Shown: piece after piece, positions 7,580-54,520 of the stretch | How the letters are laid out: every line of letters begins with the position of its first letter | How positions within the stretch are numbered: position 1 is the stretch's first letter | From: an uncultured Bifidobacterium sp. | Lineage (GTDB): Bacteria; Actinomycetota; Acidimicrobiia; Acidimicrobiales; Ilumatobacteraceae | DNA: 64,000 nucleotides | Reading direction: 5' to 3' | Assembly: GCA_964556145.1 (NCBI GenBank) | Contig: CAZKVD010000001.1 | Coordinates: forward strand, 8,379-72,378 | Notes under the pieces: generated by a model | What the model saw: only the letters and a program-made list of their open reading frames with translations | Told to the model about the DNA's origin: nothing | Databases searched by the model: none | Translations under genes and position numbers: made by a program

Positions 7580-7605
7580 CGAACAATTCTTCGCAGAAAG
7601 TGTCC
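7580..7605 (+). promoter_or_regulatory. candidate ECF-type promoter (cGAAC-N17-GTCC)
   Basis: GAAC at 7581-7584 and GTCC at 7602-7605, about 80 nt upstream of the ECF sigma start. The pattern match is weak. Confidence 0.25.
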
Positions 7606-7682
7606 GCCGATCGCGGCTCGGTGGCTCTCTTCGACATGGATCGAGGGAGTCGCGAGGCCGGATGCGGGGTGGTTGGAGCGAA

Positions 7683-9260
7683 ATGGTGGATTCAAGCGAG
7701 CACAGCGAGATCGTCGAGGGTCTGCGTTCGGGCACGAACGAGGGTCTTGCGGCGTTCTACGACCTCTACGCCGACAAGCTCTACGACTTTGCCCGTCGCC
7801 AGTTGCGTGACGCCTCGCTTGCCGCCGACGTCGTGCACGACACGGTGCTCATCGTGAGAAGCCGCATCGGCCAGCTGCGCGACGAGTCGAAGTTCCGTGC
7901 CTGGGTGTATGCCATCGTGCGCAACGAAGTGCGCGCAAAGGCCCGTGCCCGCTCTCGCCACGTCCGCGAGGAGTACGCACCCGAACAATCCGTCGACCCC
8001 GACTTTGCCGGTGACCACGACCGCCGTGAGCTTGCCTCGTTGATCGACGAGGCCGTTGCCGGCCTGACCGAACGCGAACAAGAGGTGTTCCATCTCTTCG
8101 CCCGTCAGGGACTGTCGAATGACGAAATCGCCGCCAGCCTCGAGCTGAGTTTTGCCAACGCACAAAAGCTCGTGCAGCGCGTACGCGACCGCATCGCCCG
8201 CTCGGCAGGCGCGCTGCTCGTTGCCCGTCAGGGCCGCAAGGACTGCAACGACCTCAACATCCTGCTCGTCGACTGGGACGGCACGTTCTCGCCGCTGTGG
8301 CGCAAGCGCATCGCCCGCCATGTCGACGAATGCAGCGCCTGCGAACGTCGTCGTGCCGTACTGCTGCAGCCCGGTGGTGCCGTCATGGCGGCGCCGTACC
8401 ACGTGGCCCCGGCGTCGCTGCGCTCGCGCATCTTCGATTCGGTTGCTTCCGGCGTGCAGGTCGATCTCAGTGCGGTTCCCAAGGGTCCGTTCGTGCGTCG
8501 GCCCGCGGTGCTGTCGTCGGTTGCGGGGGTTGCCTTCGTGGTACTCGTTGGCGTTATGGCGAACAACGGCGGCGAGTCGCCGCGACTCGTGACGTCTGAA
8601 TCGGCGCCGGCGACGGCGTCGGTGGCGGAACCCGCCGACTCAACTGCCACCACCGCGCCGGTTGCGACCGTCGACTCGACTGCTTCCGCTGGCGCTACAG
8701 CAACTGTCTCCTCGACGGCCCCACCGACGCCCGGGACCATCGTCTCGCCGACAACTACCGCGAAGAAGCGGCCGACGACGTCTGTGCCGGCGGCGGAAAC
8801 CGTCGACTCGACTGCTGGCGCTGCAGCAACTGTCTCGTCGACGCTTCCGTCACCGACGTCAACGTCGCCGGCAGTCGTCCCAGCGGAGTCCGCATCGGCG
8901 ACGACCGTCTCGCCGTCCCCTGTTTCGGCCGTGCCGGCGACCACGACGACGTTGGCGGTGTCGAATTCACCCTCGAAGATTTCGTTCAACTCGTGTCTGC
9001 GATTCGGCGCCACGAACCAGAAGAACTTCGCCTATTCGGTGAGGGTGTCGGACCCGCAGGGAATTGCAGCGGTTCGGATGCAGATCAGTGGTGCGTCCGT
9101 GTGGCACGCCGCCGGCAGCTTCGGCAACGGAGTCTGGTTCACATCGATCGACAAACTCGATACTGCGGCAACCAAGGCGATGGTTGCCATCGAGGCGACC
9201 GACAAGGCAGGCGGGGTCACAACGGCCCAGATTCCGGTCTACGCAGCCACCTGCCCCTGA
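7683..9260 (+). CDS. ECF sigma factor fused to a ZAS anti-sigma domain, TM helix, Ser/Thr/Pro/Ala-rich linker and extracytoplasmic C-terminal domain
   Basis: ORF 7476..9260, start taken at ATG 7683 (MVDSSEHSE). Sigma region 2 (FRAWVYAIVRNE) and region 4 (LTEREQEVFHLFARQGLSNDEIA) are followed by HVDECSAC (Hx3Cx2C) and the TM segment PAVLSSVAGVAFVVLVGVMA. Confidence 0.8.
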   Translation: MVDSSEHSEIVEGLRSGTNEGLAAFYDLYADKLYDFARRQLRDASLAADVVHDTVLIVRSRIGQLRDESKFRAWVYAIVRNEVRAKARARSRHVREEYAPEQSVDPDFAGDHDRRELASLIDEAVAGLTEREQEVFHLFARQGLSNDEIAASLELSFANAQKLVQRVRDRIARSAGALLVARQGRKDCNDLNILLVDWDGTFSPLWRKRIARHVDECSACERRRAVLLQPGGAVMAAPYHVAPASLRSRIFDSVASGVQVDLSAVPKGPFVRRPAVLSSVAGVAFVVLVGVMANNGGESPRLVTSESAPATASVAEPADSTATTAPVATVDSTASAGATATVSSTAPPTPGTIVSPTTTAKKRPTTSVPAAETVDSTAGAAATVSSTLPSPTSTSPAVVPAESASATTVSPSPVSAVPATTTTLAVSNSPSKISFNSCLRFGATNQKNFAYSVRVSDPQGIAAVRMQISGASVWHAAGSFGNGVWFTSIDKLDTAATKAMVAIEATDKAGGVTTAQIPVYAATCP

Positions 9261-40482: not shown

Positions 40483-40743
40483 GTGGAGAGCGACCCCGTG
40501 GCAACGGGTGACCACGATGTCGTGCGTCAACTCCGTGAGGCGCTTGATTCGCGCGTGGTCATCGAACAAGCGAAGGGAATGATCGCAGTTCAACGCAGGT
40601 TGCCGGTTGCGGCTGCTTTCGAGCAGCTACGTACCGAAGCGCGTCGACGCCGTGTCTCGATACATGTCGTGGCTGCAGAGGTGGTGCAGGCGCACGAGAG
40701 CCCGTCCGGCCCGGGGCTCATTGTCCGGCAAGGATGGGAGTGA
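40483..40743 (+). CDS. stand-alone ANTAR-domain protein (RNA-binding antiterminator domain)
   Basis: 86 aa. LDSRVVIEQAKGMIAVQRRLPVAAAFEQLRTEARRRRVSIHVVAAEVV matches the ANTAR pattern (IxQAKGxL...AF..LR). Confidence 0.7.
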   Translation: MESDPVATGDHDVVRQLREALDSRVVIEQAKGMIAVQRRLPVAAAFEQLRTEARRRRVSIHVVAAEVVQAHESPSGPGLIVRQGWE

Positions 40744-42307
40744 GTGTCAGCTCGGGTTCGTCGGCCAGCAGGCGCTGCAGTCGGAACTTGTTCTCGAAGA
40801 GCGCAACGAGCGCGTCGTCGCCACGCTTCAGGATTCTGATACCGCCGATTGCCTGAAGGCGGGGCACGCTTGCCTTGTCGGTCAAGCGAATGGCTTGGTA
40901 CACGGTCGGGCGGACCTCGATCGGTGCATTGAACTCGCCGGCCAAGCGATGCGCAAACACCTCCAACTGCAGGGCGCCGACCGCTGCGAGGATCGGATCG
41001 CTGTCACCCAGATCGGGGTCGCGCAGCACCTGAACAACACCTTCCTCGTCGAGTTGTGCGAGGCCCTTGCGGAACTGCTTGAAACGCCCCGAGTCGAGGG
41101 GACGTGCGGTGGCAAAGACTTCGGGCTCGAATCGTGGCACGCCGGGGAATTCGACGGCATCGTCGGCATAGAGAGTGTCGCCGATGCGCAGGTCGTTGGC
41201 GTTGATGAGGCCGATGATGTCGCCCGGATAGGCGGTCTCGATCGTTTCGCGGTCGTTCCCGAACGCCGTCGTTGCATACTTCGTGGCAACGAGTCGTTTC
41301 GATCTGATGCACGTGGCGTCCATTCCGCGTTCGAAAACGCCCGAGCACACCCGTGCAAATGCGAGTCGGTCACGGTGATTCGGGTCCATGTTCGCCTGGA
41401 TCTTGAAAACGAACGCCGAGAATGGCGAGTCGAGTTCGCGGGGCACGTCGTTCACGTCGGTACGCGGCGCGGGAGCCGGTGCAAGATCAACGACTGCGTC
41501 AAGGAGCATGCGAACACCGAAGTTGGTGAGTGCCGAGCCGACGAACACGGGCGTCGTGGATCCGGCCAGGAATGACTCGATGTCGACATTGGCACCGATT
41601 GCGTCGAGCAGAGAGCAGCCGTCGATGGCCGCGGTCCAAGCGGCACCCTCGGCTGCTGCCGCCTCGTCGGCCGGAACGACCTCTTCGGGGGAAAGTTCGG
41701 CACCGTGGGCAGTACGAACGAAACGGACGAAGTTGCCCGTGCGCCTGTCGATGACGCCCCGGAAATCGCCGGGGATGCCGACCGGCCAGGTGACCGGCGT
41801 CGGCTTCAGGCCGATCTGTTCTTCAACTTCGTCGAGCAGCTCGAGGGGATCGCGCCCCGGCCGGTCGTACTTGTTGAAAAACGTGATGACGGGCAGGTTG
41901 CGTGAACGACACACCTGGAACAACTTGAGCGTCTGGGACTCGATGCCCTTTGCCGTGTCGAGCACCATGACGACCGAGTCGACGGCGGCGAGTACGCGGT
42001 AGGTGTCTTCGGAGAAGTCGCGGTGGCCGGGAGTGTCGAGCAGGTTGAACGTGTGGCCGCGGTAGGGAAACTGCAGAACGGCCGATGAAATCGAGATACC
42101 TCGTTGCTTTTCGAGATCCATCCAGTCGGAGGTGGCCGCCTTGCGTCCACCGCGAGCCCGAACGGCCCCGGCCTCTTGCACCGCGCCTGCGTACAAGAGA
42201 AATTTTTCGGTCAACGTCGTTTTGCCCGCATCGGGGTGGGAGATGATTGCGAACGTACGCCGGTTGGCTGCCTGTGCCGACACGTCGGACTTTTGCTGGG
42301 GGTTCAT
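40718..42307 (-). CDS. prfC: peptide chain release factor 3 (translational GTPase)
   Basis: ORF 40718..42379, start taken at MNPQQKSD. Motifs RRTFAIISHPDAGKTTLTEKFLL, DTPGHRDF and NKYDR. Confidence 0.9.
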   Translation of the reverse strand: MNPQQKSDVSAQAANRRTFAIISHPDAGKTTLTEKFLLYAGAVQEAGAVRARGGRKAATSDWMDLEKQRGISISSAVLQFPYRGHTFNLLDTPGHRDFSEDTYRVLAAVDSVVMVLDTAKGIESQTLKLFQVCRSRNLPVITFFNKYDRPGRDPLELLDEVEEQIGLKPTPVTWPVGIPGDFRGVIDRRTGNFVRFVRTAHGAELSPEEVVPADEAAAAEGAAWTAAIDGCSLLDAIGANVDIESFLAGSTTPVFVGSALTNFGVRMLLDAVVDLAPAPAPRTDVNDVPRELDSPFSAFVFKIQANMDPNHRDRLAFARVCSGVFERGMDATCIRSKRLVATKYATTAFGNDRETIETAYPGDIIGLINANDLRIGDTLYADDAVEFPGVPRFEPEVFATARPLDSGRFKQFRKGLAQLDEEGVVQVLRDPDLGDSDPILAAVGALQLEVFAHRLAGEFNAPIEVRPTVYQAIRLTDKASVPRLQAIGGIRILKRGDDALVALFENKFRLQRLLADEPELTLTPILAGQ

Positions 42308-42371
42308 CGGACTACAGACGCTACCGACCGACGTAGTGTGACGCGGGGCAACGACGGGAAATGGGGAAGCA

Positions 42372-43454
42372 GTGAACAACGACGGAGTCTTTCAGCGGAT
42401 CGAGTTTTCCCATGGTCCGGCCATGGCGAACCGGCTGATGCTGGCCCCGCTGACGAACCAGCAGAGCCACTCCGACGGCACGCTGTCGGACGATGAGCAT
42501 CGTTGGCTCACGATGCGCGCCCTCGGCGGATTTGGTCTCACCATGACGTGTGCCGCGTCGGTGCAGTTCGCCGGAATCGGCTTCGCGGGACAACTCGGTG
42601 TTCACGACGATGCCCACGTGCCCGGCCTCACACGCTTGGCATGCGACATCAAGATGGCCGGCAGCGTCGCCATCGTGCAACTGCACCATGCAGGAAACCG
42701 CTCGCCACGTGAACTCACGGGCACCGATCCGCTGTGTCCGTCCGACGATCCGGAAACCGGTGCGCGTGCGATGACGAACGATGAAGTGCACGAGATGATC
42801 GGTGCCTTCGTTGCAGCAGCACGCAGGACGCAAAGTGCCGGGTTCGACGGGGTTGAACTGCACGGTGCGCACGGGTACCTGCTGTGCCAGTTCCTGTCGG
42901 CCGAACTGAACCATCGCGGTGACGAGTTCGGCGGGACGTTGGAGAATCGGTCGAGGCCACTGTTCTCGATCATCGATGGCATTCGCCGCGAATGCGGCGA
43001 TGACTTCCATGTCGGCGTTCGTTTGTCGCCGGAACGCTTCGGAATGCGGATCGACGAAATCATCGACGTCTACCGCCGTCTCGTCTCTGACGGGCAGGTC
43101 GACATGATCGACATGTCCCTGTGGGATTGGTCGAAGAATGCCAACGAAGAAGCACACGCCCACAGCCGGCTGATCGACATCTTCGCCGGAATCGAACGTC
43201 GCAACGTCAAATTGGCGGTTGCCGGAAAGCTGTACACCGCGGCTGCCGTCAGGGCCGTCATCGAATCGGGTGCCGACATCGCGGCAATCGGCCGGGCAGC
43301 GATCACGAACCACGACTTTCCGCACCGCATGCGTGACGACGAGGACTTCTCGATGCGTGCGCTCCCCGTAAGCGCCCAAATCCTGCGCGACGAGGGCTTG
43401 TCCGACACGTTCGTCGGCTACATGCGGAACTGGAAGGGTTTCGTCGCGGACTGA
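42372..43454 (+). CDS. NADH:flavin oxidoreductase (Old Yellow Enzyme family)
   Basis: 360 aa with motifs RLMLAPLTN, IVQLHHAG and GVELHGAHGYLLCQFLS. Confidence 0.85.
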   Translation: MNNDGVFQRIEFSHGPAMANRLMLAPLTNQQSHSDGTLSDDEHRWLTMRALGGFGLTMTCAASVQFAGIGFAGQLGVHDDAHVPGLTRLACDIKMAGSVAIVQLHHAGNRSPRELTGTDPLCPSDDPETGARAMTNDEVHEMIGAFVAAARRTQSAGFDGVELHGAHGYLLCQFLSAELNHRGDEFGGTLENRSRPLFSIIDGIRRECGDDFHVGVRLSPERFGMRIDEIIDVYRRLVSDGQVDMIDMSLWDWSKNANEEAHAHSRLIDIFAGIERRNVKLAVAGKLYTAAAVRAVIESGADIAAIGRAAITNHDFPHRMRDDEDFSMRALPVSAQILRDEGLSDTFVGYMRNWKGFVAD

Positions 43455-43474: not shown

Positions 43475-44314
43475 GTGGAGGTGAAGCGACTGACCGGTGT
43501 GTTCGGCGCCGAGGTGGTTGTCGACGACGTACGTCGCCTTGGTACGACCGAAGTCGATGAACTTCGGCGCCACGTCTGTGACCATGAAGTCGTCGTCCTG
43601 CGCGGACAAACGTTGTCGGTCGCCGAGCAGGTGGAATTGTCGCGTCGGCTCGGACCGGCCGGCCCGGTGCCGTTCATCGAAGCGAGCCCCGACCATCCCG
43701 AAGTCATCAAGGTCGTCAAAGAGGCCGGCGACGGTGATGCCTTCAATTTCGGCGGGGCATGGCACAGCGACTTCAGCTTCCAGCCCGAGCCCCCGGCATT
43801 CACCCTCCTGTACGCGATCGACATCCCGCCATTCGGTGGCGACACCTTGTGGGCCTCGATGACGGCGGCATGGCGCGGTCTCTCGCCCGAAAGGCAGGTC
43901 GAACTGTCCCGGTTGGTCGCCGTTCACACCGCGCGCGATGCGTACTCACGAAAGATGCAACCGCTCCATTCCGGACTGTCGGGGATGAACATTGTCTGCG
44001 ACGACACTGCCAATGACGCCGAAGCGCATCCCCTGGTGGTGACTCACCCCGAGACCGGAAGAAAGTCCCTCTTTTTCAATCGGGCTTATGTTCGGGACTT
44101 GGTCGACGTCGACGACAAAGAGGCGGCGAGGCTCCTCGAGTGGCTGCACGCACACACGACCGACGCGCGGTTCACTCTGCGCCATCGTTGGTCGGTGGGG
44201 GATCTCGTCATCTGGGACAACCGGTCGACTCAGCACTATGCGTTGAATGACTACGCCGGATTTCGTCGTGAGTTGCATCGCACGACGGTCGCCGGCGATC
44301 GCCCACGGAGTTGA
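43475..44314 (+). CDS. TauD/TfdA-family Fe(II)/2-oxoglutarate dioxygenase
   Basis: HxD motif WHSDFSF. Distal His context VIWDNRSTQHYA. Confidence 0.85.
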   Translation: MEVKRLTGVFGAEVVVDDVRRLGTTEVDELRRHVCDHEVVVLRGQTLSVAEQVELSRRLGPAGPVPFIEASPDHPEVIKVVKEAGDGDAFNFGGAWHSDFSFQPEPPAFTLLYAIDIPPFGGDTLWASMTAAWRGLSPERQVELSRLVAVHTARDAYSRKMQPLHSGLSGMNIVCDDTANDAEAHPLVVTHPETGRKSLFFNRAYVRDLVDVDDKEAARLLEWLHAHTTDARFTLRHRWSVGDLVIWDNRSTQHYALNDYAGFRRELHRTTVAGDRPRS

Positions 44315-44320: not shown

Positions 44321-45178
44321 ATGTTCCTGGCAATCGCAAGCACCGGTCGCACGGCAACGTCATACGTTGCCGAAGCACTGAACCATGTCGACGGGATTGC
44401 CGCGCTTCACGAGGGTCACTTGGGGAACGACGCAGGCTCCGATGTGCTTCCGATGGTGAATCTCGACAACTTCCAGTGCTTCAAGAGTCCTGAACGGGCG
44501 AAAATGGTCGTTTCCGAAAAGCGGAATCCCGAACTTCTCGAAGGCGTGTGTCGAGGCCTCGGTGTCGAGATGCTCGTCGACGTTGCCTATTACAACTCCG
44601 TTCTCTTGGCCGAGATGCTTGAACAGGTGCCGACGTCTCACGGTGCGATCATCATCAGGGACTGCGAGTCCTTTGTCCGGTCGGCAACGTGGTTCACGGG
44701 TACCGATCCGATGCCCGTCGGTTGGCCCGACCCGGCGAAGGCTCTCGATTCCCGTGAACGGTTCATTGGCCTCGGTCGACTTCGCCCATTCGATGGCGAT
44801 GATCTGCGCGAGTGGGCGGGTTGGGGTGCTGTCGAACGCAACATCTGGTTGTGGCGCGCAACAAACACCGTGTTGTGCAACACCTGGCAACGCTTTCCCG
44901 ATCGCGTGCACTTTCTCGATTTCAAGGAACTCATCAGCGATCCGACGGGCATTCTGCAGGGTCTGTTGGCTACCATCGGTCGTCCCCTCGTTGATGACCG
45001 CTTTGGCCAGCTCGAGAGGGCGCTCGTCGAGGCGCACCAGCGTCAAAACGAGCGGCGCGGCGGTTATCAGGTCGGTGCATCCGACACCTGGACCGCCGAG
45101 CAACGTCGTCTCTTGTCCGAGGCAACGAAGGAAATCGCGAGTCGAGTGGAGAAGTTGCGTGGCCGACGGGCTGGTTGA
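44321..45178 (+). CDS. hypothetical protein, sulfotransferase-like (P-loop-type STGRTATSY and RDCESFVRS)
   Basis: 285 aa. The resemblance to the 5'-PSB and 3'-PB motifs of sulfotransferases is by eye only. Confidence 0.4.
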   Translation: MFLAIASTGRTATSYVAEALNHVDGIAALHEGHLGNDAGSDVLPMVNLDNFQCFKSPERAKMVVSEKRNPELLEGVCRGLGVEMLVDVAYYNSVLLAEMLEQVPTSHGAIIIRDCESFVRSATWFTGTDPMPVGWPDPAKALDSRERFIGLGRLRPFDGDDLREWAGWGAVERNIWLWRATNTVLCNTWQRFPDRVHFLDFKELISDPTGILQGLLATIGRPLVDDRFGQLERALVEAHQRQNERRGGYQVGASDTWTAEQRRLLSEATKEIASRVEKLRGRRAG

Positions 45179-45185
45179 CCAAATA

Positions 45186-45407
45186 GTGGACATCATCAAG
45201 TCGGTGCTGTCGGCGCGGGGAGCCACCGACGTCGCGGTCTCGATCGACTCGGGAATGGGCAACCCTCCGGCGTGGGACTCGCTTGCCTTCGTCGAGATTT
45301 TCACGACCGTTTCCACGCGGCTCGGAATCGATGTCAGCGACGACGATGCAATCCACTTCATGACGGTGCGCGAAATCGTCGACTTCGTCGCCGATCAAGC
45401 CGGCTGA
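45186..45407 (+). CDS. acyl/peptidyl carrier protein (DltC-like)
   Basis: Tail of ORF 44562..45407. GTG 45186 lies 8 nt after the preceding stop. 73 aa with the phosphopantetheine-Ser context AWDSLAFVEI. Confidence 0.75.
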   Translation: MDIIKSVLSARGATDVAVSIDSGMGNPPAWDSLAFVEIFTTVSTRLGIDVSDDDAIHFMTVREIVDFVADQAG

Positions 45408-45415
45408 GGAGTCCC

Positions 45416-46933
45416 GTGTCGATTTTGCGTCGGGTCTTGTCCGATCGTTGGCGCGTACCAGTCGATGCCCCGGCTTTCGAGGGGCCCTTTGGTGCCGACA
45501 AAAAGACGGTCCTCAGCGAAACAGACGTCGTGTCACGACTCGCAGCGTTGCGTTGCGCGCTCATCGATGCCGGAGTCGGCAAGGGCTCCCGCGTGGGTGT
45601 CCTCAGCAATCACAGAGTCGAGACTTACCTTGCAGTGCTGGCCGCGGTATCGGTTGGTGCGACCTTCGTACCCCTCAACCCGAAATTTCCACTCGACAGG
45701 CTTCGCACAATTCTCGACCTCGCACAACCGAACGTGATTCTGGGCGACCCCGCGACGCTCGACGTACATCGCGAAATCGCCGACGGCATTCCGCTGATCG
45801 ACGTGTCAACGGTTCGGCCGATGGCCGAAGAGGTGGGGACGTGGAACGCTGCACTCGATTCAAGTGATGTCGCACCCGGTGACACCGCCTACATCATGTT
45901 CACTTCGGGTTCCACGGGTACGCCGAAGGGTGTGCCGATCTCGTACGGCAACCTGTCGGCGTACATCGACGGCGCAACGGCTCTTCTCGAAATTCCGGAG
46001 GGGTCTCGATTCTCACAGTTTTTCGACCTCAGCTTCGACTTGTCGATGCACGACATCTTCGTGTCGACGCGGCTGCGCGGCACTCTGGTGGCCCCGTCTC
46101 AAGTCGATGTGATGATGCCGGGTGCATACGTTGTGCGCGAGCGGATCGATGCATGGTTCTCCGTTCCGCTGTTGGGCGCGCAGTTGGGTGGGGCGACACG
46201 CAAGGCGGACTTTCCCGGGCTCCGATCGATGCTCTTTTGCGGCGAGGCACTGCCGATGGAAACCGTCATCGCGTGTCGGGGTTGGCTCGCCGACGGTGGT
46301 CGGATGTGGAATCTCTATGGCCCCACCGAAGCGACGATCGCCTTCACGGCCGCCGATGTCACCGATTCGACCCGAAGCGAGGGCAATGCGTCAATCGGCA
46401 CGGCCTTCGGCAAAAACTTCACCGCCTTGTTGAATGCCGACGGCACGGTCGACCTCGACCCCGACATCGACTCAGAAGGTGAACTGTTGTTGGGTGGCCC
46501 CCAGGTGTTCGCCGGGTACTCCACCGACGCGCCGTCGCCGTTCGTGCGACATGCGGAGACGTCCTACTACCGCAGCGGAGATTTGGTGCGTATCGACACC
46601 GAGGGTGTGTATTTCCGGGGTCGTGTCGACTCTCAGGTGAAGTTCCGCGGCTACCGAATCGAACTCGGGGAGATCGAAACCGTGGCCCGTCGTACATTCG
46701 GCCTGAAGACACTGGCAGTTGTGGTGTCCGGAGAAGGTGCGGGTGCTCGTTTGACGATGTACCACCTTGCAGCCGAGAACAAAGCGGACGCAGCGCTCGA
46801 TCTTCGTCGGCTCGCCGAGACGCTGCCCGCGTACATGATTCCGTCCGAGTCCGTCGGCCTCGAGGTCATGCCAACCAATCAGAACGGCAAGATCGACCGT
46901 CGAGCGCTGACAGTGCTGGCATCGGGCGGTTGA
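45416..46933 (+). CDS. stand-alone adenylate-forming enzyme (DltA-like carrier-protein ligase)
   Basis: ORF 45272..46933, GTG 45416 after GAGGAG. Motifs YIMFTSGSTGTPKGV, FDLSFDLS, NLYGPTEATI, YRSGDL, KFRGYRIELGEIE and NGKIDR. Confidence 0.85.
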   Translation: MSILRRVLSDRWRVPVDAPAFEGPFGADKKTVLSETDVVSRLAALRCALIDAGVGKGSRVGVLSNHRVETYLAVLAAVSVGATFVPLNPKFPLDRLRTILDLAQPNVILGDPATLDVHREIADGIPLIDVSTVRPMAEEVGTWNAALDSSDVAPGDTAYIMFTSGSTGTPKGVPISYGNLSAYIDGATALLEIPEGSRFSQFFDLSFDLSMHDIFVSTRLRGTLVAPSQVDVMMPGAYVVRERIDAWFSVPLLGAQLGGATRKADFPGLRSMLFCGEALPMETVIACRGWLADGGRMWNLYGPTEATIAFTAADVTDSTRSEGNASIGTAFGKNFTALLNADGTVDLDPDIDSEGELLLGGPQVFAGYSTDAPSPFVRHAETSYYRSGDLVRIDTEGVYFRGRVDSQVKFRGYRIELGEIETVARRTFGLKTLAVVVSGEGAGARLTMYHLAAENKADAALDLRRLAETLPAYMIPSESVGLEVMPTNQNGKIDRRALTVLASGG

Positions 46934-46940: not shown

Positions 46941-47990
46941 ATGACCCCATTGGCCCATGTCGTGACGATTCTGGCGGTTCTGCCGGTCGCTCATTTTCTC
47001 TCGCCCAGGGTCCGGCTTGCATTCGTCACGTTCGCCGGCGCGGTCTTCATGTTGATGCTCGCTCCAGCCGGTTTCTGGGTGGTTCTCGTCAGCATCGTCG
47101 AAGGCCTGATTCTCGAGCGCCTTCTGCGCAACCTTCCGAAGAAGTCGGCCGTCAGGCAATACGTGCCGTACCTGCTTCTCGTCAACGTGTTCACCACCGA
47201 TCTTGCCGGCGGCGTCTTTTCCGGTCAGCGGTTCGTGACTGCGGGTGTGGCATTCGCCGTTGTTCGCGTGTTCATGACAACCAAGCAATTGTTGGGTGCC
47301 AAGTCCACCACGGGCACGCAACGAGTCATGTCGCTCGCGGCCGGCGGATGGTTTCTGCCGGCGATTGTCGTGGGCCCGGTCTTTTCCGGCACGACTCTGT
47401 GGGACCAAACACGAAAAGACGCAGTGGAATCAGTGACGTCGCCGACCGAATTCCTCTATCGCAAGTTGTTCGGCGGTTGGATTCTGGCGGCTCTGTTGGC
47501 GGATTGGCTGGCGCACGAGGCAGGGGGTACGCATCTCGACAGGTGGACCGCTCCGTTCGTTCTTCTTGCTTTGTTCGGACACCTGTTCACCGCGTTCTGG
47601 GGACAGTCCCTCATTGCCGAATCGGGTGCCGCCCTTGCCGGATTCGACATTCCTGCAAACTTCAATCGTCCTTGGCTCGCGGTCGACATTCGTGATTTCT
47701 GGAATCGCTGGCACATGTCGATGGCGCGATTCGTCATGCAGTACTTCTTTCTGCCGCTCAACTTGCGTGGCGTGAACGCCCGTCTGGCGACCGCGGTGGC
47801 TTTCCTCTTCATGGGTCTGTGGCACGAGGTTCGTCCCGGCTATGTGATCTGGGGCTTGGCTCACGGTTGTCTCATGGCCTTCGCACCGAAGTCGGCCGAC
47901 ATCACGATCCGAACCGGGCGCATCATCAACCGTGTTGCAACGATCTCGTCGGTCGTTCTTCTCTCGTACGTGGCGAATTATGCGTTCTGA
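46941..47990 (+). CDS. membrane-bound O-acyltransferase (MBOAT; DltB/AlgI-like)
   Basis: 349 aa polytopic protein. FWNRWHMSMARF and GLWHE carry the conserved MBOAT His residues. Confidence 0.8.
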   Translation: MTPLAHVVTILAVLPVAHFLSPRVRLAFVTFAGAVFMLMLAPAGFWVVLVSIVEGLILERLLRNLPKKSAVRQYVPYLLLVNVFTTDLAGGVFSGQRFVTAGVAFAVVRVFMTTKQLLGAKSTTGTQRVMSLAAGGWFLPAIVVGPVFSGTTLWDQTRKDAVESVTSPTEFLYRKLFGGWILAALLADWLAHEAGGTHLDRWTAPFVLLALFGHLFTAFWGQSLIAESGAALAGFDIPANFNRPWLAVDIRDFWNRWHMSMARFVMQYFFLPLNLRGVNARLATAVAFLFMGLWHEVRPGYVIWGLAHGCLMAFAPKSADITIRTGRIINRVATISSVVLLSYVANYAF

Positions 47991-49050
47991 CCGTCGCAGC
48001 TTCCGTCGACACGTGGTTCGTCGCGTGGTGCTTCCACTGATCGCGCTGGCGATGGTTTTCGTTCCTTCCTACAGTTGGCTGCGTGCCGGTCGTGTGCCGG
48101 GCAAGTACGTCAACCGGTGTCAGGCTGACGTCTACGAGAGTGACGCGCCCGCGGCCGACCTGTTGTTGATCGGGGCAAGCCGAACCGGATTCGGCATCGA
48201 CGACGACCTCGTGGATCTGCGATTGTCGGCAGTGCAAAGCCATCGAACCGACAAGATCGTGTTGCTCGGCAACGCCGACTCCGATTCGAACATGGCGCTT
48301 CGGACGTACCTGCGTGAGCGTGGCGTCCCCGAAAGCCTCGGCATCGAGGTCCTCATCACCCGCGTGGCGGGGGAGTCAATGGCGCCGCGCTACGGAGCGT
48401 CGCTGACCAACCGCAGTTACGCGCTGTTCGGCGCACGGGCCTACTCGGGCTACCTCGGATCCCTCGTCGACAACGAGGTCTTGGGCTGGCGTGACGTCTA
48501 CGCGCGTTCCTACTTCCCGTCGCCGTTCAAGTTTTTCTTCGAACACCTGCAGGTCGGTTTCGACAATGCCTTGCGCGAAATCGACAGGGCGATCGACCCT
48601 CTCGGTGAATGCGACCGTACGGTTTTGCCGGCGTGGGGGCCGGTCGCCGCAGCCCCGTTCACCGAGACGACGCCACGTCCGTCCGACAGGAAGATCGCAC
48701 AGTTGAACAAGGAAGTTGCGCGCTACGTGAAGGTCAACCTCGACAGCCGGCGCGCATCGGGTGAACTTGCGGTCATGCGCGACATGGTTGACGTTGCGCG
48801 AAGCGCGGGCGTGAAGAACTTGTTCTTCTACTACTTCCCATCGTTCGGCGAGACTTCGGACGTGATGGATCTCGGTCGATTGGGAGAATTGATTCCGGGC
48901 GTCGACATGTTCGACGCGCGGCCGATCATCAGCGATCCGAACAAGCCCGGGCTCGACCTGCAGTACAAGGATCGGGCGCATCTCACCAAGTACGCCGCTT
49001 ACGAGGTGACGACGGACCTCGTGGATTTCTTGAAGGAGCTTGGCAAGTGA
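47980..49050 (+). CDS. N-terminally anchored DltD/SGNH-like acyl-transfer protein
   Basis: ORF 47932..49050. ATG 47980 overlaps the MBOAT stop. One TM helix, then LLIGASRTG (candidate Ser block) and a C-terminal DRAH (DxxH block). Confidence 0.55.
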   Translation: MRSDRRSFRRHVVRRVVLPLIALAMVFVPSYSWLRAGRVPGKYVNRCQADVYESDAPAADLLLIGASRTGFGIDDDLVDLRLSAVQSHRTDKIVLLGNADSDSNMALRTYLRERGVPESLGIEVLITRVAGESMAPRYGASLTNRSYALFGARAYSGYLGSLVDNEVLGWRDVYARSYFPSPFKFFFEHLQVGFDNALREIDRAIDPLGECDRTVLPAWGPVAAAPFTETTPRPSDRKIAQLNKEVARYVKVNLDSRRASGELAVMRDMVDVARSAGVKNLFFYYFPSFGETSDVMDLGRLGELIPGVDMFDARPIISDPNKPGLDLQYKDRAHLTKYAAYEVTTDLVDFLKELGK

Positions 49051-49178
49051 GGAAATTCCTCGTGGCGCACCCGCGAACCCGTGCCGTTGCAGCGTGGGTG
49101 GGGTTGATCCTTGCCGCCGCATTGCTGCTGCGCTGGGTCGAGCCGGCCGTTTTCGAATCCCCCTACAACAACTTCTGA
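49047..49178 (+). CDS. 43-aa single-pass micro-protein, DltX-like (C-terminal ...FESPYNNF)
   Basis: My own translation: VRKFLVAHPRTRAVAAWVGLILAAALLLRWVEPAVFESPYNNF*. The GTG overlaps the upstream stop (GTGA). It falls below the ORF-track size cut-off. Confidence 0.55.
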   Translation: MRKFLVAHPRTRAVAAWVGLILAAALLLRWVEPAVFESPYNNF

Positions 49179-49195
49179 ACGTAGGCTGTCCAGCC

Positions 49196-50368
49196 ATGGG
49201 AAACCCGTGGTTTGAAACAGTTGCCGTTGCACAGCGCAGGGCACAACGGCGGCTGCCGAAATCCGTGTACGGCGCAATCGTCGGGGGATCGGAAAAGGGC
49301 CTCACGTTCAACGACAACCTGAGCGCGTTCGACGAACTCGGGTTTGCGCCTCACATCGCGGGTCTTCACGCCGGTCGAGATCAATCGATCACGGTCATGG
49401 GCCAGCAGGTGTCGATGCCGGTCGTCATTTCGCCGACCGGTGTGCAGGCCGTTCATCCCGATGGTGAGGTGGCCGTTGCGCGGGCTGCAGCCAACCGGGG
49501 AGTCGCGATGGGGCTCAGCTCGTTTGCCAGCAAGTCGATCGAAGACGTCACCGCGGTCAACAACCAGGTTCTCTTTCAGATGTACTGGTCGGGCGGTCGC
49601 GACACGATGGTGCAGCGACTCGAACGAGCAAGAGCAGCCGGAGCCAAGGGCATCATCCTCACCCTCGACTGGACGTTTTCGAACGGTCGGGATTGGGGCA
49701 GCCCGTGGATTCCCGAAAAGGTCGGCCTGAAGGAAATGATCAAGCTCGCACCACAGGGTCTCTCCCGGCCCAAGTGGTTGTGGATGTATGCGAAGACGCT
49801 CGGGCTGCCCGACCTCACGACCCCGAACATGGCCGCTCCCGGTGAAAAGCCACCGACGTTCTTCGGTGCGTATTTCGAGTGGATGCAAAGTCCGCCACCG
49901 AGTTGGGACGACATTGCCTGGTTGCGTTCGCAATGGGATGGCCCATTCATGGTGAAGGGTGTCTGTCGGGTCGACGATGCAAAGCGCGTTGTCGACGCAG
50001 GTGCCACTGCTTTGTCGGTGTCGAATCACGGCGGAAACAATCTCGACGGCACGCCCGCCCCGATTCGGTCGTTGCCGGCGATCGCCGACGCGGTTGGTGA
50101 CCAGATCGAAATCCTGCTCGACGGCGGTGTGCGGCGTGGTAGTGACGTCGTGAAGTGTCTTGCGCTCGGCGCGCGGGCCGTCATGATCGGACGCGCCTAC
50201 CTGTGGGGCTTGTCTGCGAATGGCCAAGCAGGTGTCGAGAACGTCCTGGACATCCTTCGCGGGGGCATCGACTCTGCGTTGCTGGGCCTTGGCAAGTCGC
50301 ACGTCAGCGAACTCAATCGCGACGACATCGTGATTCCCGACGGATTCACACGACAACTCGGTGTCTGA
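49196..50368 (+). CDS. FMN-dependent alpha-hydroxy-acid oxidase/dehydrogenase (LldD/lactate oxidase family)
   Basis: ORF 49040..50368, start taken at MGNPWFETV. Motifs SNHGGNNLDG and DGGVRRGSDVVKCLALGA. Confidence 0.85.
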   Translation: MGNPWFETVAVAQRRAQRRLPKSVYGAIVGGSEKGLTFNDNLSAFDELGFAPHIAGLHAGRDQSITVMGQQVSMPVVISPTGVQAVHPDGEVAVARAAANRGVAMGLSSFASKSIEDVTAVNNQVLFQMYWSGGRDTMVQRLERARAAGAKGIILTLDWTFSNGRDWGSPWIPEKVGLKEMIKLAPQGLSRPKWLWMYAKTLGLPDLTTPNMAAPGEKPPTFFGAYFEWMQSPPPSWDDIAWLRSQWDGPFMVKGVCRVDDAKRVVDAGATALSVSNHGGNNLDGTPAPIRSLPAIADAVGDQIEILLDGGVRRGSDVVKCLALGARAVMIGRAYLWGLSANGQAGVENVLDILRGGIDSALLGLGKSHVSELNRDDIVIPDGFTRQLGV

Positions 50369-50500
50369 AGTCTTTTCTTAACGCACGTCCTTCATCGTAC
50401 GAACAACGGTCACGTCGATCGATCCCGGCGCCGTTCGGGACATTCCGTTGCCTTTCCTGCTGTCTGGGCAATTCGGCCCGACAAAAGACAGGAGACAGGC

Positions 50501-50680
50501 ATGAAGCGACTCATCGTTCGCATCAACACCCGACTCGCGGACGTGCGCGAAGCGCACGACCACGGCGGCGTCGCGGCGGAATACGGGGTGCTGCTGGCCG
50601 GCATTGTGGCAGTGGTGGCAGTTGCTGCCGCGGCACTCGGCGGACGCATCGACGGAATCTTCGACTCGATCCTTCCGTGA
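50501..50680 (+). CDS. flp: Flp-family type IVb prepilin
   Basis: My own translation (59 aa, not in the ORF track): MKRLIVRINTRLADVREAHDHGGVAAEYGVLLAGIVAVVAVAAAALGGRIDGIFDSILP*. G/xxxxEY processing motif. RBS AGGAGA. Confidence 0.85.
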   Translation: MKRLIVRINTRLADVREAHDHGGVAAEYGVLLAGIVAVVAVAAAALGGRIDGIFDSILP

Positions 50681-51072
50681 TCCGTCGTCGTTCGGTCCCC
50701 GGGTCCAAGACCCGGGGACCGGACGATGCGGGGGTTGTGGCGGTTGAGTTCGCGCTCGTCGTTCCGCTCCTCATCGTCCTTCTCTTCACAATCATCCTCG
50801 GTGGGTCCGTGTGGCTCGACCAAATGCACCTGCAGTCGGCCGTGCGCAATGCCGCTCGAGTCGGTGCCGTTGCGCCGTCGTCGGCATGCAGTGCCGCGAC
50901 GGCGGACCTCACCGGCAACGACGTGGGAACCGTGACCTGCGATCTCCTCGATGACTGTTCATCGGGAACCGCACGAGTGCAATTGACCGCCCTCCAGACC
51001 ATCGACCTGCCGCTCGTCGGCGAAAGGAATGTGACATTGCATGCAACGTCATCGTTCGTCTGCAACCCGTGA
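50677..51072 (+). CDS. tadE: TadE-like pseudopilin
   Basis: Tail of ORF 50155..51072. The GTG overlaps the flp stop. Contains the TadE motif GVVAVEFALVVPLLIVLLF. Confidence 0.75.
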   Translation: MIRRRSVPGSKTRGPDDAGVVAVEFALVVPLLIVLLFTIILGGSVWLDQMHLQSAVRNAARVGAVAPSSACSAATADLTGNDVGTVTCDLLDDCSSGTARVQLTALQTIDLPLVGERNVTLHATSSFVCNP

Positions 51073-52012
51073 CGTTCGCGATGAGCGCGGCGTGATTGCC
51101 ATCATGACGGCAGTCGCGTTTGTCCCGCTTGCTTTCATGTTGGCCCTTGTTGCCGATGCCGGTCGCGTGTGGGTTGCGCGCGAACGTCTGCAGAACTCGG
51201 TTGAAGCCGTTGCCGTCGCCACCGCATCCGAGTGGGCCAACGGAGGGTCAAGTTGCTCGACACGTGCGCTTTCCTTTTTCACTTCCGATGGTTCGAGTCC
51301 GGACGGCACCGGTTGCTCGACCACGGGCACGCGACAATCCGGTGTCGTGTCGGCTTCCGCCGACGAAGAGGTTGACCTGATGTTCAGTGACGTTGTCGGC
51401 CGGTCGACCAGTCGTGTCTCGGCGTCGGCACGGGTGCGCGTATCGACGGCGTCGGCCGTGCGGGGACTGTGGCCGTTCGGTCTCTGTGCCGACAACACTG
51501 CGATCTCGGCTTGGATTTCGGCTGGGTTCCCCGAGGGTCGTCGGGCGACGATCACGTTTCAACAGCCCTCGCAACTGTGCGGCGGCGACGTCTCGGGTAA
51601 CTGGGCCGTGCTCGATTTCAACGGCGGATCGGTGTCGAACAGCGAGACCCAACACTGGGTCACGTCTGGTTATCAGTCGACCGTGACGGTCGGCGACGTA
51701 GTCAACGGTAGTCCCGGTGCGCCGTCAACCTCTCTCGACATGACGCCGGCGATCGGCGAGACGATTCTCTTTCCTCTCTACCGATACCCGCGCAACAACG
51801 GCAGCAACGCCAGATACACGATCGTCGGTTTTGCGACGGCACGAGTCGACGCGGTTCGCCTCACGGGTGGTGCCGCTCAACGCAGCATCACGATCACCTT
51901 CAAAACCGGGACCACCGCCTCGGGGGCAACGAGCACGGCCATGAGCGGGGGAAATTTCGGACTGACCGCATGGAGCGTCTGCTCCTTTGACGAATACGGA
52001 GTGTGCCAATGA
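51041..52012 (+). CDS. TadG-like pilus assembly protein (Tad_N domain)
   Basis: ERGVIAIMTAVAFVPLAFMLALVADAGRVWVARERLQNSVEA is typical of the TadG N-terminus. Confidence 0.7.
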   Translation: MQRHRSSATRDVRDERGVIAIMTAVAFVPLAFMLALVADAGRVWVARERLQNSVEAVAVATASEWANGGSSCSTRALSFFTSDGSSPDGTGCSTTGTRQSGVVSASADEEVDLMFSDVVGRSTSRVSASARVRVSTASAVRGLWPFGLCADNTAISAWISAGFPEGRRATITFQQPSQLCGGDVSGNWAVLDFNGGSVSNSETQHWVTSGYQSTVTVGDVVNGSPGAPSTSLDMTPAIGETILFPLYRYPRNNGSNARYTIVGFATARVDAVRLTGGAAQRSITITFKTGTTASGATSTAMSGGNFGLTAWSVCSFDEYGVCQ

Positions 52013-52617
52013 ATGTGAAGTCGATAGCCCGTCGCGCGGCGCCAGCGGTCGGCGTCTTTTCGCTGACCTTTCTCGGAGTCCTCGCGCTGGTGCCGAAGGA
52101 CTCGGTTGACGACGATGAACTGGTGCCCGTCGTGGTCGCGACGCGCACATTGTCCGACGGAACCGACGCGTCAGAAGTGCGCGGTGCGGTCGAGGTGCGG
52201 ATGGTCCCCGACATCGCCCGCAGCGAGGGTGCGCTTGCGGCTCTCGAAGCGCTTCCCGATGGTGTTCTTGCGTTCGATCACGTGCCCGGTCAGCAAATTC
52301 TCACCACTTCGTTCGCAAGAAACCATGTCGGGAGTCTCGGCGCGGATTTCGTCGCAGTGTCAGTGACGCTCGATCCGCAACGCTGGGTGGGGCCGTGGCT
52401 TCAGGCCGGGCGCATCGTCGACGTCTACGACACACGTGAACCGAACCCGGTACTCGCTGCCGAACGTGCGGTGATTCTCGATGCACCCGATGACCCGGAT
52501 GCGGTCGAGCTCGAACCGACCGAAGACACCGTCATTTCGCTTGGCGTGCCGAAGGACTCGCTCACCGAGGTTCTCGCCGCAGCCGAAAACGGCACCGTCT
52601 GGCTGGTTGGGCGATGA
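52003..52617 (+). CDS. CpaB/RcpC-like (SAF-domain) pilus assembly protein
   Basis: N-terminal anchor, then the VPVVVATRTLSDGT pattern. Located immediately upstream of the pilus ATPase gene. Confidence 0.55.
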   Translation: MPMNVKSIARRAAPAVGVFSLTFLGVLALVPKDSVDDDELVPVVVATRTLSDGTDASEVRGAVEVRMVPDIARSEGALAALEALPDGVLAFDHVPGQQILTTSFARNHVGSLGADFVAVSVTLDPQRWVGPWLQAGRIVDVYDTREPNPVLAAERAVILDAPDDPDAVELEPTEDTVISLGVPKDSLTEVLAAAENGTVWLVGR

Positions 52618-53828
52618 TCGCCCAGGACATCGCCCGCGCGGTCCGCGAACGTCTCGCTGCCATTCCGGAACGGGCGAACCTCCCCGATGATGAATTGCGC
52701 AGGCTCGTCGAAGAACAGATCGACTCGGTACAGCAGCTACCCACTTTCGCGGATGTCGAGAATCCCGACGGCGTCCGCCGCTCGGTCGTCAACGATCTGC
52801 TCGGATTCGGCCCGATCCAGGAACTGCTCGACGACCCCTCGATCTCCGAAATCATGGTGAACGGACCCGGGGAAATCTGGATCGAACGAGCGGGGACCAT
52901 CTCGCTCAGTGACGGGGCGTTCGAATCGTCGGAACAGTTGATGCGCATCATCGACCGTATGGTGCGGTCCTCGGGCAGACGTGTTGATCAATCCTCGCCG
53001 ATGGTTGATGCTCGTCTGCCCGATGGTTCACGCCTCAACGTCGTGTTGCCGCCGTTGTCGGTGGACGGTCCTGCGATCACGATCAGAAAATTCACCTCGT
53101 CGGGGCTCGGTATCGACGATCTTGTCGCATCGGGCACCATTTCGGCGTCGGGGGCCGATTTTCTTCGGGATGCAGTCGCTTCGAGAATGAACGTTCTCGT
53201 CAGCGGGGGCACGGGTACGGGCAAGACGACGGTTCTCAACATCTTGTCCTCGTTCATCGATCGCGATGAGCGCGTCGTGACGATCGAAGATGCCGTCGAG
53301 TTGACGTTGCGCCTGCCGAATCTGATTCGCCTCGAGGCACGCCCGAGCAATTCGGAAGGGGCCGGTGAAGTCAACATTCGCGACCTGGTGCGCAATTCGT
53401 TGCGCATGCGCCCGAACCGCATTGTGGTGGGTGAAGTGCGCGGCAGTGAAACGATCGACATGTTGCAGGCCATGAACACGGGGCACGAAGGTTCGCTGTC
53501 GACCGTGCACGCCAATTCGCCGAGGGATGCGCTCCGGCGACTCGAAACGATGATTCTGCTTGCCGGCGTCGATCTTCCGTTGCGTGCCGTTCGTGAACAA
53601 ATTGCCTCCTCCATCGACGTGATCGTGCACCTCGCCCGCGATGCACGTGGCCGACGGTTCGTCACGACCATCACCGAGGTGGTGGGCATGGAAAGTGACG
53701 TCGTGTCGACCGCCGATCTCTTCGCGCGTGACTTCACCGGTGTCGCCACCGAGACGTTGCCGGCATTGCAGACGACCGGCCTGGTGTCGAGTCGGCTCGG
53801 AATGCGCCGTGCACGGAGGGCCGCATGA
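52614..53828 (+). CDS. tadA: Tad/Cpa secretion ATPase (TadA/CpaF, T2SS-E family)
   Basis: Walker A GGTGTGKTT, an Asp box, and a His box (GHEGSLSTVHAN). Confidence 0.9.
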   Translation: MIAQDIARAVRERLAAIPERANLPDDELRRLVEEQIDSVQQLPTFADVENPDGVRRSVVNDLLGFGPIQELLDDPSISEIMVNGPGEIWIERAGTISLSDGAFESSEQLMRIIDRMVRSSGRRVDQSSPMVDARLPDGSRLNVVLPPLSVDGPAITIRKFTSSGLGIDDLVASGTISASGADFLRDAVASRMNVLVSGGTGTGKTTVLNILSSFIDRDERVVTIEDAVELTLRLPNLIRLEARPSNSEGAGEVNIRDLVRNSLRMRPNRIVVGEVRGSETIDMLQAMNTGHEGSLSTVHANSPRDALRRLETMILLAGVDLPLRAVREQIASSIDVIVHLARDARGRRFVTTITEVVGMESDVVSTADLFARDFTGVATETLPALQTTGLVSSRLGMRRARRAA

Positions 53829-54520
53829 GCTCGACGGTTCTGGCGGCAAGTGCATTCGGTGGTGCGGCGTCGTTGGGTGCGGTGCAACTTGCGCCCTTCG
53901 TTCGCCGGCGCATCCACGGTCGGCCCACGAACCCGGTCGACCGCATCAAGGCGATTCGTACCGAACGGGCGAGAAGCTCGGCGATCGAAGACCAGTTGGC
54001 GCCGGCCCTGCAATTGATCGTCGGCAACCTGCGCGTCGGGCGCAATGTCGTCGCTTCGTTTTCAGAAGTCGCAGAAGCCGTACCCGAACCACTGGGCGGA
54101 CTCTTGCGCGAGGTTGTGGCCGAGGCGAAGTTGGGCACGCCGGCCGGTGAAGTGTTGATGACGGTCGCCGAACGCGAGTCGAACCGGCACCTGGCGATCG
54201 TGGCATCGGCGCTCGTCCTCCACGGGCGCCACGGTGGATCTCTCGTTGAGATTCTCGAGACGGTCATCGAAACCGTCGAGGAAGAAGACCGTCTGCGGCG
54301 TGACCTGCGAAGCGTCACCGCAGACGGGCGACTGAGTGCCGTCGTGTTGTTGGCCATGCCTCCGGTCGTGCTCGTGTTCGTGTCGGCGATGAGTCCCGGC
54401 TACGCCGCCCCGTTGGTGACGACACCCCTTGGAATTGCGATGTCGGGGACCGCGGCCGTTCTTGGTGCGGTCGGCTGGCGGTGGCTGCACCGATTGGGCA
54501 ATCCGGAGATTGCGCTGTGA
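53825..54520 (+). CDS. tadB: TadB-like inner-membrane platform protein (T2SS-F family)
   Basis: 231 aa with TM helices at both ends and a cytoplasmic helical domain. Overlaps the tadA stop. Confidence 0.75.
   Translation: MSSTVLAASAFGGAASLGAVQLAPFVRRRIHGRPTNPVDRIKAIRTERARSSAIEDQLAPALQLIVGNLRVGRNVVASFSEVAEAVPEPLGGLLREVVAEAKLGTPAGEVLMTVAERESNRHLAIVASALVLHGRHGGSLVEILETVIETVEEEDRLRRDLRSVTADGRLSAVVLLAMPPVVLVFVSAMSPGYAAPLVTTPLGIAMSGTAAVLGAVGWRWLHRLGNPEIAL

Follow-up and report, generated by a model that had tools for sequence, protein, structure and literature searches.

We describe a 43-codon open reading frame (ORF) that closes a cassette of Dlt-like genes and encodes a small, single-pass membrane peptide. 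The ORF lies in a stretch of 64,000 nucleotides (hereafter the window) of contig CAZKVD010000001.1, assembly GCA_964556145.1, from an uncultured actinomycete of the Ilumatobacteraceae. Comparison of related loci indicates that the ORF is a real gene. The peptide most likely does the job of DltX, the acyl-carrying microprotein of the dlt system, while belonging to a separate, undescribed family. The case for a relay function rests on three observations: the locus carries a complete Dlt-like gene set, the peptide has DltX architecture, and its gene migrates together with genes for a membrane-bound O-acyltransferase (MBOAT) as well as a DltD-like protein. An earlier note on this DNA had proposed a DltX-type relay peptide. 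The functional half of that proposal stands on the evidence just named; membership in the DltX family does not, given the results of family-model and profile comparisons, the serine at position -6 and the 3' position of the gene.

To our knowledge, DltX of Firmicutes is the only characterised stand-alone acyl-shuttle microprotein. DltX has fewer than 50 amino acids (aa) and an invariant tyrosine in a C-terminal FxYxxF motif (PMC12148441); the Bacillus thuringiensis protein ends in FIYNEF (PMC5541007). These sources bear out the size and the C-terminal tyrosine motif that the earlier note had given for DltX. Specifically, DltB moves D-alanine from DltC to the tyrosine of the DltX FxYxxF motif, from which it passes to a serine of DltD (PMC12148441). 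Other MBOAT pathways manage without a separate microprotein and have the motif fused to the MBOAT itself, as set out in the 2025 paper on PatA and PatB (PMC12148441). In PatA-type MBOATs, which are self-acetylated, FxYxxF is carried on two extra C-terminal helices that are absent from DltB; Tyr455 of Campylobacter jejuni PatA lies 140 residues past His315 (PMC12148441).

The peptide ORF is a conserved gene

The ORF translates into VRKFLVAHPRTRAVAAWVGLILAAALLLRWVEPAVFESPYNNF. Residues 1–12 make up a basic N-terminus, residues from about 13 to 31 a predicted transmembrane (TM) helix, and the remainder an acidic tail, VEPAVFESPYNNF-COOH, that is predicted to be extracytoplasmic. The hydropathy maximum, 2.12, falls over residues 13–31, and both translation and hydropathy agree with the basic N-terminus, single hydrophobic helix and YNNF end that the earlier note had described. 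The GTG start codon (49047–49049) is the first start codon 3' of the preceding in-frame stop, and the overlap with the TGA of the upstream ORF (49048–49050), in the form GTGA, was confirmed in the sequence. A Shine–Dalgarno-like AAGGAG precedes the GTG (Table 1), and most related loci have a purine-rich stretch at the matching site. Together, the AAGGAG and the GTGA overlap suggest that translation of the peptide is coupled to that of the DltD-like gene.

At its other end, the ORF fills the space before the next gene, as had been noted: its stop codon ends at 49178, and 17 nt separate it from the ATG at 49196. That ATG is the real start of the downstream gene, which encodes a protein resembling the mycofactocin-system dehydrogenase MftD, since the TIGR03966 model aligns from residue 3 and orthologues align from residue 1. 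The longer ORF 49040–50368 is an over-extension of this gene. Thus, the only other-frame overlap of the peptide ORF is with an N-terminal extension, and the first reading of that extension as implausible holds.

Length alone proves nothing for the peptide ORF in DNA of 62% GC; the surrounding 12 kb contain 144 ORFs of at least 30 aa. Conservation is more telling. A homology search with the peptide as query returned eight called proteins, all of which end in WVEPAVFESPY(NN/AG)F. An independent search, made with the 356-aa DltD-like protein against one genome per species, yielded 11 loci in metagenome-assembled genomes (MAGs) of Actinomycetota/Ilumatobacteraceae. The same small frame lies 3' of the orthologous DltD-like gene in 12 of 12 genome loci, namely these 11 and one designated L001 (related loci carry L numbers below). 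The same is true of both usable metagenome loci, which were found with relatives only 31–33% identical and in which the frame ends in ...VEPGAVESPYNGF and ...WVDPGASESPYNGF; the metagenome scan, which employed a narrower alignment (A5), gave three short loci only. All 14 loci recovered without use of the peptide therefore possess it together with its conserved C-terminus. Conservation of the frame and terminal motif 3' of MBOAT and DltD-like genes was the check that the earlier note had put forward, and the Y-x-x-F end is kept in 14 of 14 loci.

The substitution pattern points the same way. In pairwise codon comparisons, the ratio of nonsynonymous to synonymous divergence (pN/pS) of the peptide frame is 0.38 overall, with a synonymous divergence (pS) of about 0.5–0.6. 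By region, the ratio is 0.69 in the N-terminus, 0.34 in the helix and 0.13 over the last 14 codons. A non-coding-like pattern, which had been named beforehand as evidence against a gene, did not occur. GC content at the three codon positions is 0.65/0.47/0.79 in the peptide frame versus 0.63/0.44/0.78 in the upstream gene, and the pattern is missing from the other two frames. Conservation in 14 of 14 loci, the low pN/pS of the tail and the frame-specific GC pattern together indicate that the ORF is a real gene and that, as judged from substitutions, strong purifying selection acts on its C-terminal third.

Annotation of the family is systematically incomplete or wrong. The ORF had been described as unannotated, which is correct for the first-stage ORF track; some NCBI MAG records do call orthologues, under the name "hypothetical protein" (e.g., MFM2115703.1 and MEY4159206.1). 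At locus L026, a 38-codon family member at 5128–5244, MKKPAARELVFWAILVLVSAVLLNIVEPGLHESPYNGF, was missed by the gene finder. A 35-aa member, P0187, is mis-named "FlaG/FlaF family flagellin (archaellin)" by JGI.

Features of the peptide family

A profile search collected 65 clusters, which with the loci make 87 unique sequences of 26–68 aa. Counted from the C-terminus, every member of the set has L(-17), V(-13), E(-7), S(-6), P(-5), Y(-4) and F(-1), with phenylalanine always the final residue. The endings are ESPYNNF (56 sequences), ESPYAGF (17) and ESPYNGF (14). Length variation is confined to the N-terminal part, and the frame always stops after the Phe codon. The N-terminal part has a mean net charge of +3.5, the tail has a charge of -2, and one hydrophobic helix lies between them; under the positive-inside rule, the peptide is predicted to span the membrane once, with a cytoplasmic N-terminus and an extracytoplasmic C-terminus.

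Known families and structures offer no counterpart. Scanned against Pfam and NCBIfam, the peptide had no meaningful match; one to DUF7439 (E 0.076) was rejected as a hydrophobic-helix artefact. The peptide profile returned only chance matches to chlorophyll-binding proteins among PDB sequences. Likewise, we found no description of an ESPYxxF family in the literature on DltX-like peptides, on DltX/DltB in Actinobacteria or on MBOAT acyl shuttles.

The peptide accompanies MBOAT and DltD-like genes

The peptide gene remains with the MBOAT and DltD-like genes across four gene orders. It lies 3' of the DltD-like gene in the window, in L001 and in L021–L023. The full cassette, consisting of genes for a protein of no known family, a carrier protein, an adenylation enzyme, the MBOAT, the DltD-like protein and the peptide, is intact in L001 and in L021/L022, where greA comes next. 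In L014 and L023, the first three cassette genes are divergent from the MBOAT, DltD-like and peptide genes. On the 55% GC contig of L026, the last three genes run DltD-like, MBOAT, peptide after the same first three; the DltD-like protein of this locus scores only 79 bits against the DltD-like profile. Finally, in L016–L018 and L024, the peptide gene is directly 3' of the MBOAT gene. As read from gene order, then, the peptide travels with the MBOAT/DltD-like pair and with nothing else.

The L016–L018 and L024 subgroup (in L016, the locus at 6562–9207) also has a gene for a Peptidase_M23+fn3 protein 5' of the MBOAT gene, and its surroundings are wall-polymer genes of the Stealth, glycosyltransferase, ABC-2 and AT3-SGNH kinds. 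A 396-aa protein encoded 3' of the L016 adenylation gene was considered as a hidden DltD-like protein and rejected: hhalign gave a null result, and the protein has a sulfotransferase-like P-loop.

Some of the loci sit amid genes for Stealth proteins, glycosyltransferases, a TagGH-like ABC-2 transporter, Bac_transf proteins, cytidylyltransferases and AT3-SGNH proteins. Judged by these families, the surroundings are a wall-glycopolymer context.

The Dlt-like cassette

In the window, the cassette genes are co-directional and tightly packed in the order given above for L001 (Table 1). The locus thus holds equivalents of DltC, DltA, DltB and DltD together with a terminal microprotein. The first gene encodes a 285-aa protein with weak resemblance to sulfotransferases (PF13469 at E 0.0036, below the cut-off, and PDB entry 22ga at E 0.47). 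This gene is always directly 5' of the one for the carrier protein, and the cassettes that diverge most (L016, L021, L023 and L026) are no exception.

The carrier gene was masked in the ORF list, where it forms the tail of a spurious 281-aa ORF (44562–45407) and is overlapped by an over-extended adenylation ORF (45272–46933). Its product was compared with that of a called gene in L001, an 80-aa protein with a faint PP-binding match, and its conservation in related loci begins at residue 1. The adenylation gene itself starts at the GTG at 45416, which has GAGGAG just 5' of it. The adenylation enzyme matches NCBIfam model TIGR01733 at 4e-81 and the DltA models at about 5e-62; its PDB matches are LgrA, PltF-like and DltA ligases, and both the Asp of FDxS (here FDLS) and the Lys of a terminal NGKxDR are present. 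A specificity code read by hand from motif positions (approximately D-L-H-L-L-C-L-I-A-K) was set aside as too uncertain to name an amino acid; only the alpha-amino-binding Asp of FDLS is secure.

The MBOAT resembles DltB. TIGR04091 (DltB) is its only meaningful NCBIfam match (1.3e-23), and its only sequence matches in the PDB are the DltB entries 6bug and 8jem (1e-13). His295, in GLWHE, aligns with the His of GFWHG in 6bug and is invariant in 11 orthologues. The aligned DltB histidine (His336 in 6bug chain numbering) is presumably the catalytic one. The enzyme is of the short form: 54 residues follow His295, and both the extra C-terminal helices and an FxYxxF motif are missing. The universally conserved MBOAT histidine has a DltB equivalent that is needed for activity (PMC12148441).

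The MBOAT has a C-terminal motif of its own. Across L001–L026, its end (47964–47990 in the window) is a near-invariant LS[YF]VAN[YH][AT]F with 0–2 extra residues; in L026 it is ...NYT. Basic residues precede the last helix, and the aromatic end that follows this helix probably faces outward beside the peptide tail. We considered this end (...SYVANYAF) as a fused shuttle and rejected it as the main site. Specifically, its Tyr spacing misfits YxxF-COOH, and neither Tyr is invariant: the end is SFVANYT in L026 and SYVANHAFG in L016, so its Tyr can be replaced, whereas the peptide Tyr is invariant.

The DltD-like protein, whose ATG start at 47980 was set from homologue lengths, has no Pfam or NCBIfam family match, and its profile found nothing among PDB sequences. 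Structure prediction was more informative. A first AlphaFold model from 14 sequences was weak (pLDDT, the model's confidence score, 66; DltD match at E 0.012). With a 44-sequence alignment, the AlphaFold2 model reached a pLDDT of 82.8; in it, Ser67 sits where beta1 meets alpha1, and D331-x-x-H334 precedes the last helix. In a Foldseek search of the PDB with this model, the top five matches are all DltD (7dxm, 6o93, 3bma and 6pfx), with a probability of 0.94–1.00, E about 1e-3 and TM-scores of 0.33–0.45; other SGNH hydrolases follow. The candidate catalytic residues are Ser67 (in G-A/S-S-R), His334 and Asp331, the last being D, N or S in distant relatives. Ser67 and His334 are invariant even among DltD-like relatives at 25–38% identity. 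On the model, the 356-aa protein is an extracytoplasmic SGNH-fold partner with a predicted Ser nucleophile and block V His.

A proposed tyrosine relay and its alternatives

The hypothesis is that the cassette delivers an amino acid to the cell envelope. The adenylation enzyme would activate an alpha-amino acid and load it onto the 82-aa carrier protein. The short DltB-like MBOAT would then pass the aminoacyl group through the membrane onto Tyr40 of the peptide, in the tail ...VEPxxxESPYxxF-COOH. From the flexible tail, the group would go to the catalytic Ser of the DltD-like protein in its membrane anchorage, and this protein in turn would esterify an extracytoplasmic cell-envelope glycopolymer. 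By analogy with its counterparts in DltX and PatA, Tyr40 is likely to relay the acyl group from the MBOAT to the DltD-like enzyme. From the same two precedents we infer that an acyl-tyrosine intermediate forms, which way the transfer runs, and what kind of acyl group and acceptor take part.

Several points weigh against this scheme. The DltX model PF12459, a search that the earlier note had recommended, matches none of 20 family peptides scanned (17 plus 3, of which 19 are distinct), even at E values up to 10, while genuine DltX from B. thuringiensis, run as a positive control against the same library, scores 2e-21 (75.7 bits). Alignment of the family profile with B. thuringiensis DltX by hhalign gave a probability of 1.4%. 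An invariant Ser-Pro stands where FxYxxF has its first Phe: position -6 is always Ser, and the nearest upstream Phe, at -8, is present in only 73 of the 87 sequences. A different local geometry or a different role of the tail is possible as a result of this replacement. No DltD-like gene occurs within the stretches of up to 9 kb examined around the peptide in L016–L018 and L024; thus, the enzyme proposed as acceptor is not in every case a neighbour. In structure, the DltD-like protein matches DltD only modestly. Finally, covalent acylation of the tyrosine is pure inference from DltX and PatA.

In a rival reading, the peptide is a small subunit of the MBOAT complex that is not covalently acylated. 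It would help to assemble, stabilise or gate the complex, or would tether the MBOAT to the extracytoplasmic transferase, with its tail as a docking motif only. Co-occurrence and selection speak for partnership and say nothing about chemistry; the motif differs from FxYxxF in its first position and the peptide has no DltX homology; and the MBOAT has its own conserved aromatic C-terminus, which probably faces outward. We nonetheless regard such a subunit as unlikely. The best-conserved part of the peptide is Tyr(-4)...Phe-COOH, which is the acyl-bearing part in DltX and PatA (PMC12148441), and an MBOAT of the short form needs a shuttle in trans. The terminal Tyr of the MBOAT, moreover, is replaceable (F in L026, H in L016). 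A different chemistry is suggested by the neighbouring gene: the peptide, with its conserved C-terminal aromatic motif, could be the precursor of a ribosomally synthesized and post-translationally modified peptide (RiPP) or cofactor, akin to mycofactocin MftA with its C-terminal Val-Tyr, and be processed by MftD-like, TauD-family and old-yellow-enzyme-type (OYE-type) enzymes. The gene 17 nt downstream is indeed an MftD equivalog (TIGR03966, 2e-210). However, the peptide has a TM helix and ends in YNNF, and its translation appears coupled to that of the DltD-like gene. Two oxidoreductase genes on the opposite strand split the peptide from the MftD-like gene in L001 and L010, which assigns the peptide to the Dlt-like unit. 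L016–L026 have no MftD-like gene nearby, and the peptide still follows an MBOAT or DltD-like gene there. The TauD gene is missing in L001, and the cassettes of L021 and L026 lack both it and the OYE-type gene. In the window, a scan of the ORFs around the peptide shows neither the radical S-adenosylmethionine enzyme MftC nor MftB, and a conserved TAGGCT before the MftD-like ATG suggests a separate promoter. Judged by synteny, the precursor reading is largely refuted, and we consider it very improbable.

Least probable of all, to the point of being negligible, is that the ORF is an untranslated chance product of GC-rich DNA that owes its conservation to an overlapping regulatory element or 3' untranslated region. 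Spurious ORFs of similar size are abundant in the window, but a pN/pS of 0.13 in the tail at a synonymous divergence of about 0.5–0.6, the frame-specific GC pattern at third codon positions, an amino-acid motif kept at 55% GC and in rearranged operons, and a length that varies only N-terminally in a frame that always ends at the Phe codon all speak for translation. The comparative evidence, as we read it, refutes this explanation.

With the tyrosine relay as the preferred reading, a broader proposal can be framed. The peptide may be the signature component of a system, so far unrecognised, for amino-acylation of the envelope in Acidimicrobiia-type Actinomycetota and in one or more lower-GC lineages. 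This stand-alone Tyr shuttle, with an ESPYxxF rule of its own, would either have an origin separate from that of DltX or have diverged from it too far to be recognised. Its partners would be a new DltD-like family and an obligatory protein of sulfotransferase fold, and it would place an amino acid other than D-alanine on a wall glycopolymer that is either not a teichoic acid or teichoic-acid-like. We advance this combination of claims tentatively, as one about which we are in some doubt.

Flanking genes and signals

Table 1. Features in and around the Dlt-like cassette, in window coordinates.
Feature	Position	Strand	Basis or remark
OYE-type flavin oxidoreductase	42372–43454	+	Pfam match
TauD-family dioxygenase	43475–44314	+	Pfam match
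285-aa protein without family, part of cassette	44321–45178	+	Synteny
Carrier protein, 82 aa, WDSLAF phosphopantetheine-site motif, DltC-equivalent	45159–45407	+	Translation, comparison with L001
Stand-alone amino-acid adenylation enzyme of nonribosomal peptide synthetase (NRPS) type, 505 aa, DltA-equivalent step	45416–46933	+	PF00501, 3e-58
Short DltB-like MBOAT, 349 aa	46941–47990	+	PF03062, 6e-20
DltD-like protein, 356 aa, N-terminal membrane anchor and SGNH-fold domain (predicted)	47980–49050	+	AlphaFold2 model, Foldseek
Shine–Dalgarno-like AAGGAG	49033–49038	+	Read from sequence; 8 nt 5' of peptide GTG, within 3' end of DltD-like gene
Peptide ORF, 43-aa single-pass microprotein	49047–49178	+	Translation, conservation, selection, hydropathy
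TAGGCT, candidate -10 element	49182–49187		8 nt 5' of ATG 49196
MftD-like flavin mononucleotide (FMN) dehydrogenase	49196–50368	+	TIGR03966 equivalog, 698 bits versus cut-off of 471

The OYE-type and TauD genes are co-directional with the cassette and closely spaced 5' of it. The TauD gene is found in L002–L012, and because the two genes are kept in the close lineage only, they are optional accessories. On the 3' side, the MftD-like protein is 89–94% identical across loci, while neighbouring genes are at 50–80%. There is no mftA, mftB or mftC beside its gene, and by sequence comparison its conservation is unusually strong for an orphan MftD. The sequence TAGGCT(G), often after TTCGAA, lies directly past the stop codon of the peptide and 6–8 nt before the MftD-like ATG in the window and in L002–L007, L009 and L011. 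It looks like an actinobacterial -10 element (TANNNT) of a leaderless or near-leaderless mRNA. If TAGGCT is indeed a promoter, the Dlt-like operon would end at the peptide. Promoter and terminator scans around the peptide ORF gave nothing informative.

Further out, the MftD-like gene is followed by a Tad/Flp pilus set on the forward strand (TadE-like, TadG-like, T2SSE ATPase and T2SSF; 50155–54520), which is syntenic in relatives and unrelated to the peptide. At the other end, prfC, encoding release factor RF3 (40718–42379, reverse strand), is divergent from the start of the operon. A forward-strand ORF at 40607–41575 is the antisense shadow of prfC, and its apparent conservation in relatives stems from prfC.

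Implications

If the relay is correct, the peptide constitutes a second family of free-standing shuttle peptides, in a different phylum and again in the company of a short MBOAT and a carrier-protein donor. This would support the idea that a split versus a fused Tyr motif follows the type of acyl donor. Should the broader proposal of an envelope amino-acylation system also be true, it would become a general rule that a short MBOAT together with a carrier protein signals a Tyr microprotein acting in trans, and hidden microproteins near MBOATs could be sought by this rule in any genome. For genes of this family, which are often missed, the search rule is a TM helix followed by ...V[E/D]Pxxx-ESPYxxF and a stop. 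The natural variation between Ser-Pro and Phe-x offers a way to probe what a shuttle motif requires. More broadly, the findings point to unstudied envelope amino-acylation in abundant, mostly uncultured freshwater and soil Actinomycetota.

Comparison with known systems

The likeness to DltX is one of architecture and company. Each is about 45 aa long, with a basic N-terminus in the cytoplasm, a single TM helix and a short outer tail. Both have Tyr at -4 and a terminal Phe (FIYNEF in DltX, SPYNNF in the peptide), a spacing that recurs in FIYANF. Alongside both, the locus encodes a carrier protein, an adenylation enzyme, a short MBOAT and an SGNH protein of the DltD type that is anchored in the membrane. 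The two differ in sequence, in which no homology is detectable, and in motif, which in the peptide is E-S-P-Y-x-x-F with an invariant upstream V-[E/D]-P. The peptide tail, measured from the Trp at the start of the TM helix to the Tyr, is about 7 residues shorter. The gene comes last, after the DltD-like or MBOAT gene, whereas dltX lies 5' of dltA; and the hosts are Actinomycetota (Ilumatobacteraceae-type MAGs), whereas DltX comes from dltXABCD operons of Firmicutes. The rest of the cassette also departs from the classical dlt operon, which has no counterpart of the 285-aa protein. In addition, the PDB search places the adenylation enzyme nearer to generic NRPS A domains (264 bits) than to DltA (about 150 bits).

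Gram-negative bacteria provide a precedent for proteins of DltX topology outside Firmicutes that are unrelated to DltX in sequence. Specifically, their Dlt-like operons (the dlt operons of Dickeya/Pectobacterium and others like them) begin with a small ORF whose product is described as having DltX topology and no sequence similarity to DltX (PMC5541007). By that description, phylum, gene order and motif set these operons apart from the peptide cassette. PatA and, by extension, AlgI and others share with the peptide a Tyr in a C-terminal hexapeptide that ends in Phe and lies exposed on the outer face; this Tyr is proposed to pass the acyl group on from the His of the MBOAT to an SGNH Ser, in PatB or AlgJ/X (PMC12148441). 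PatA-type enzymes have the motif within the MBOAT itself, on two extra helices, and use acyl-CoA as donor; here, the MBOAT is short, the peptide is separate and the donor is a dedicated carrier protein.

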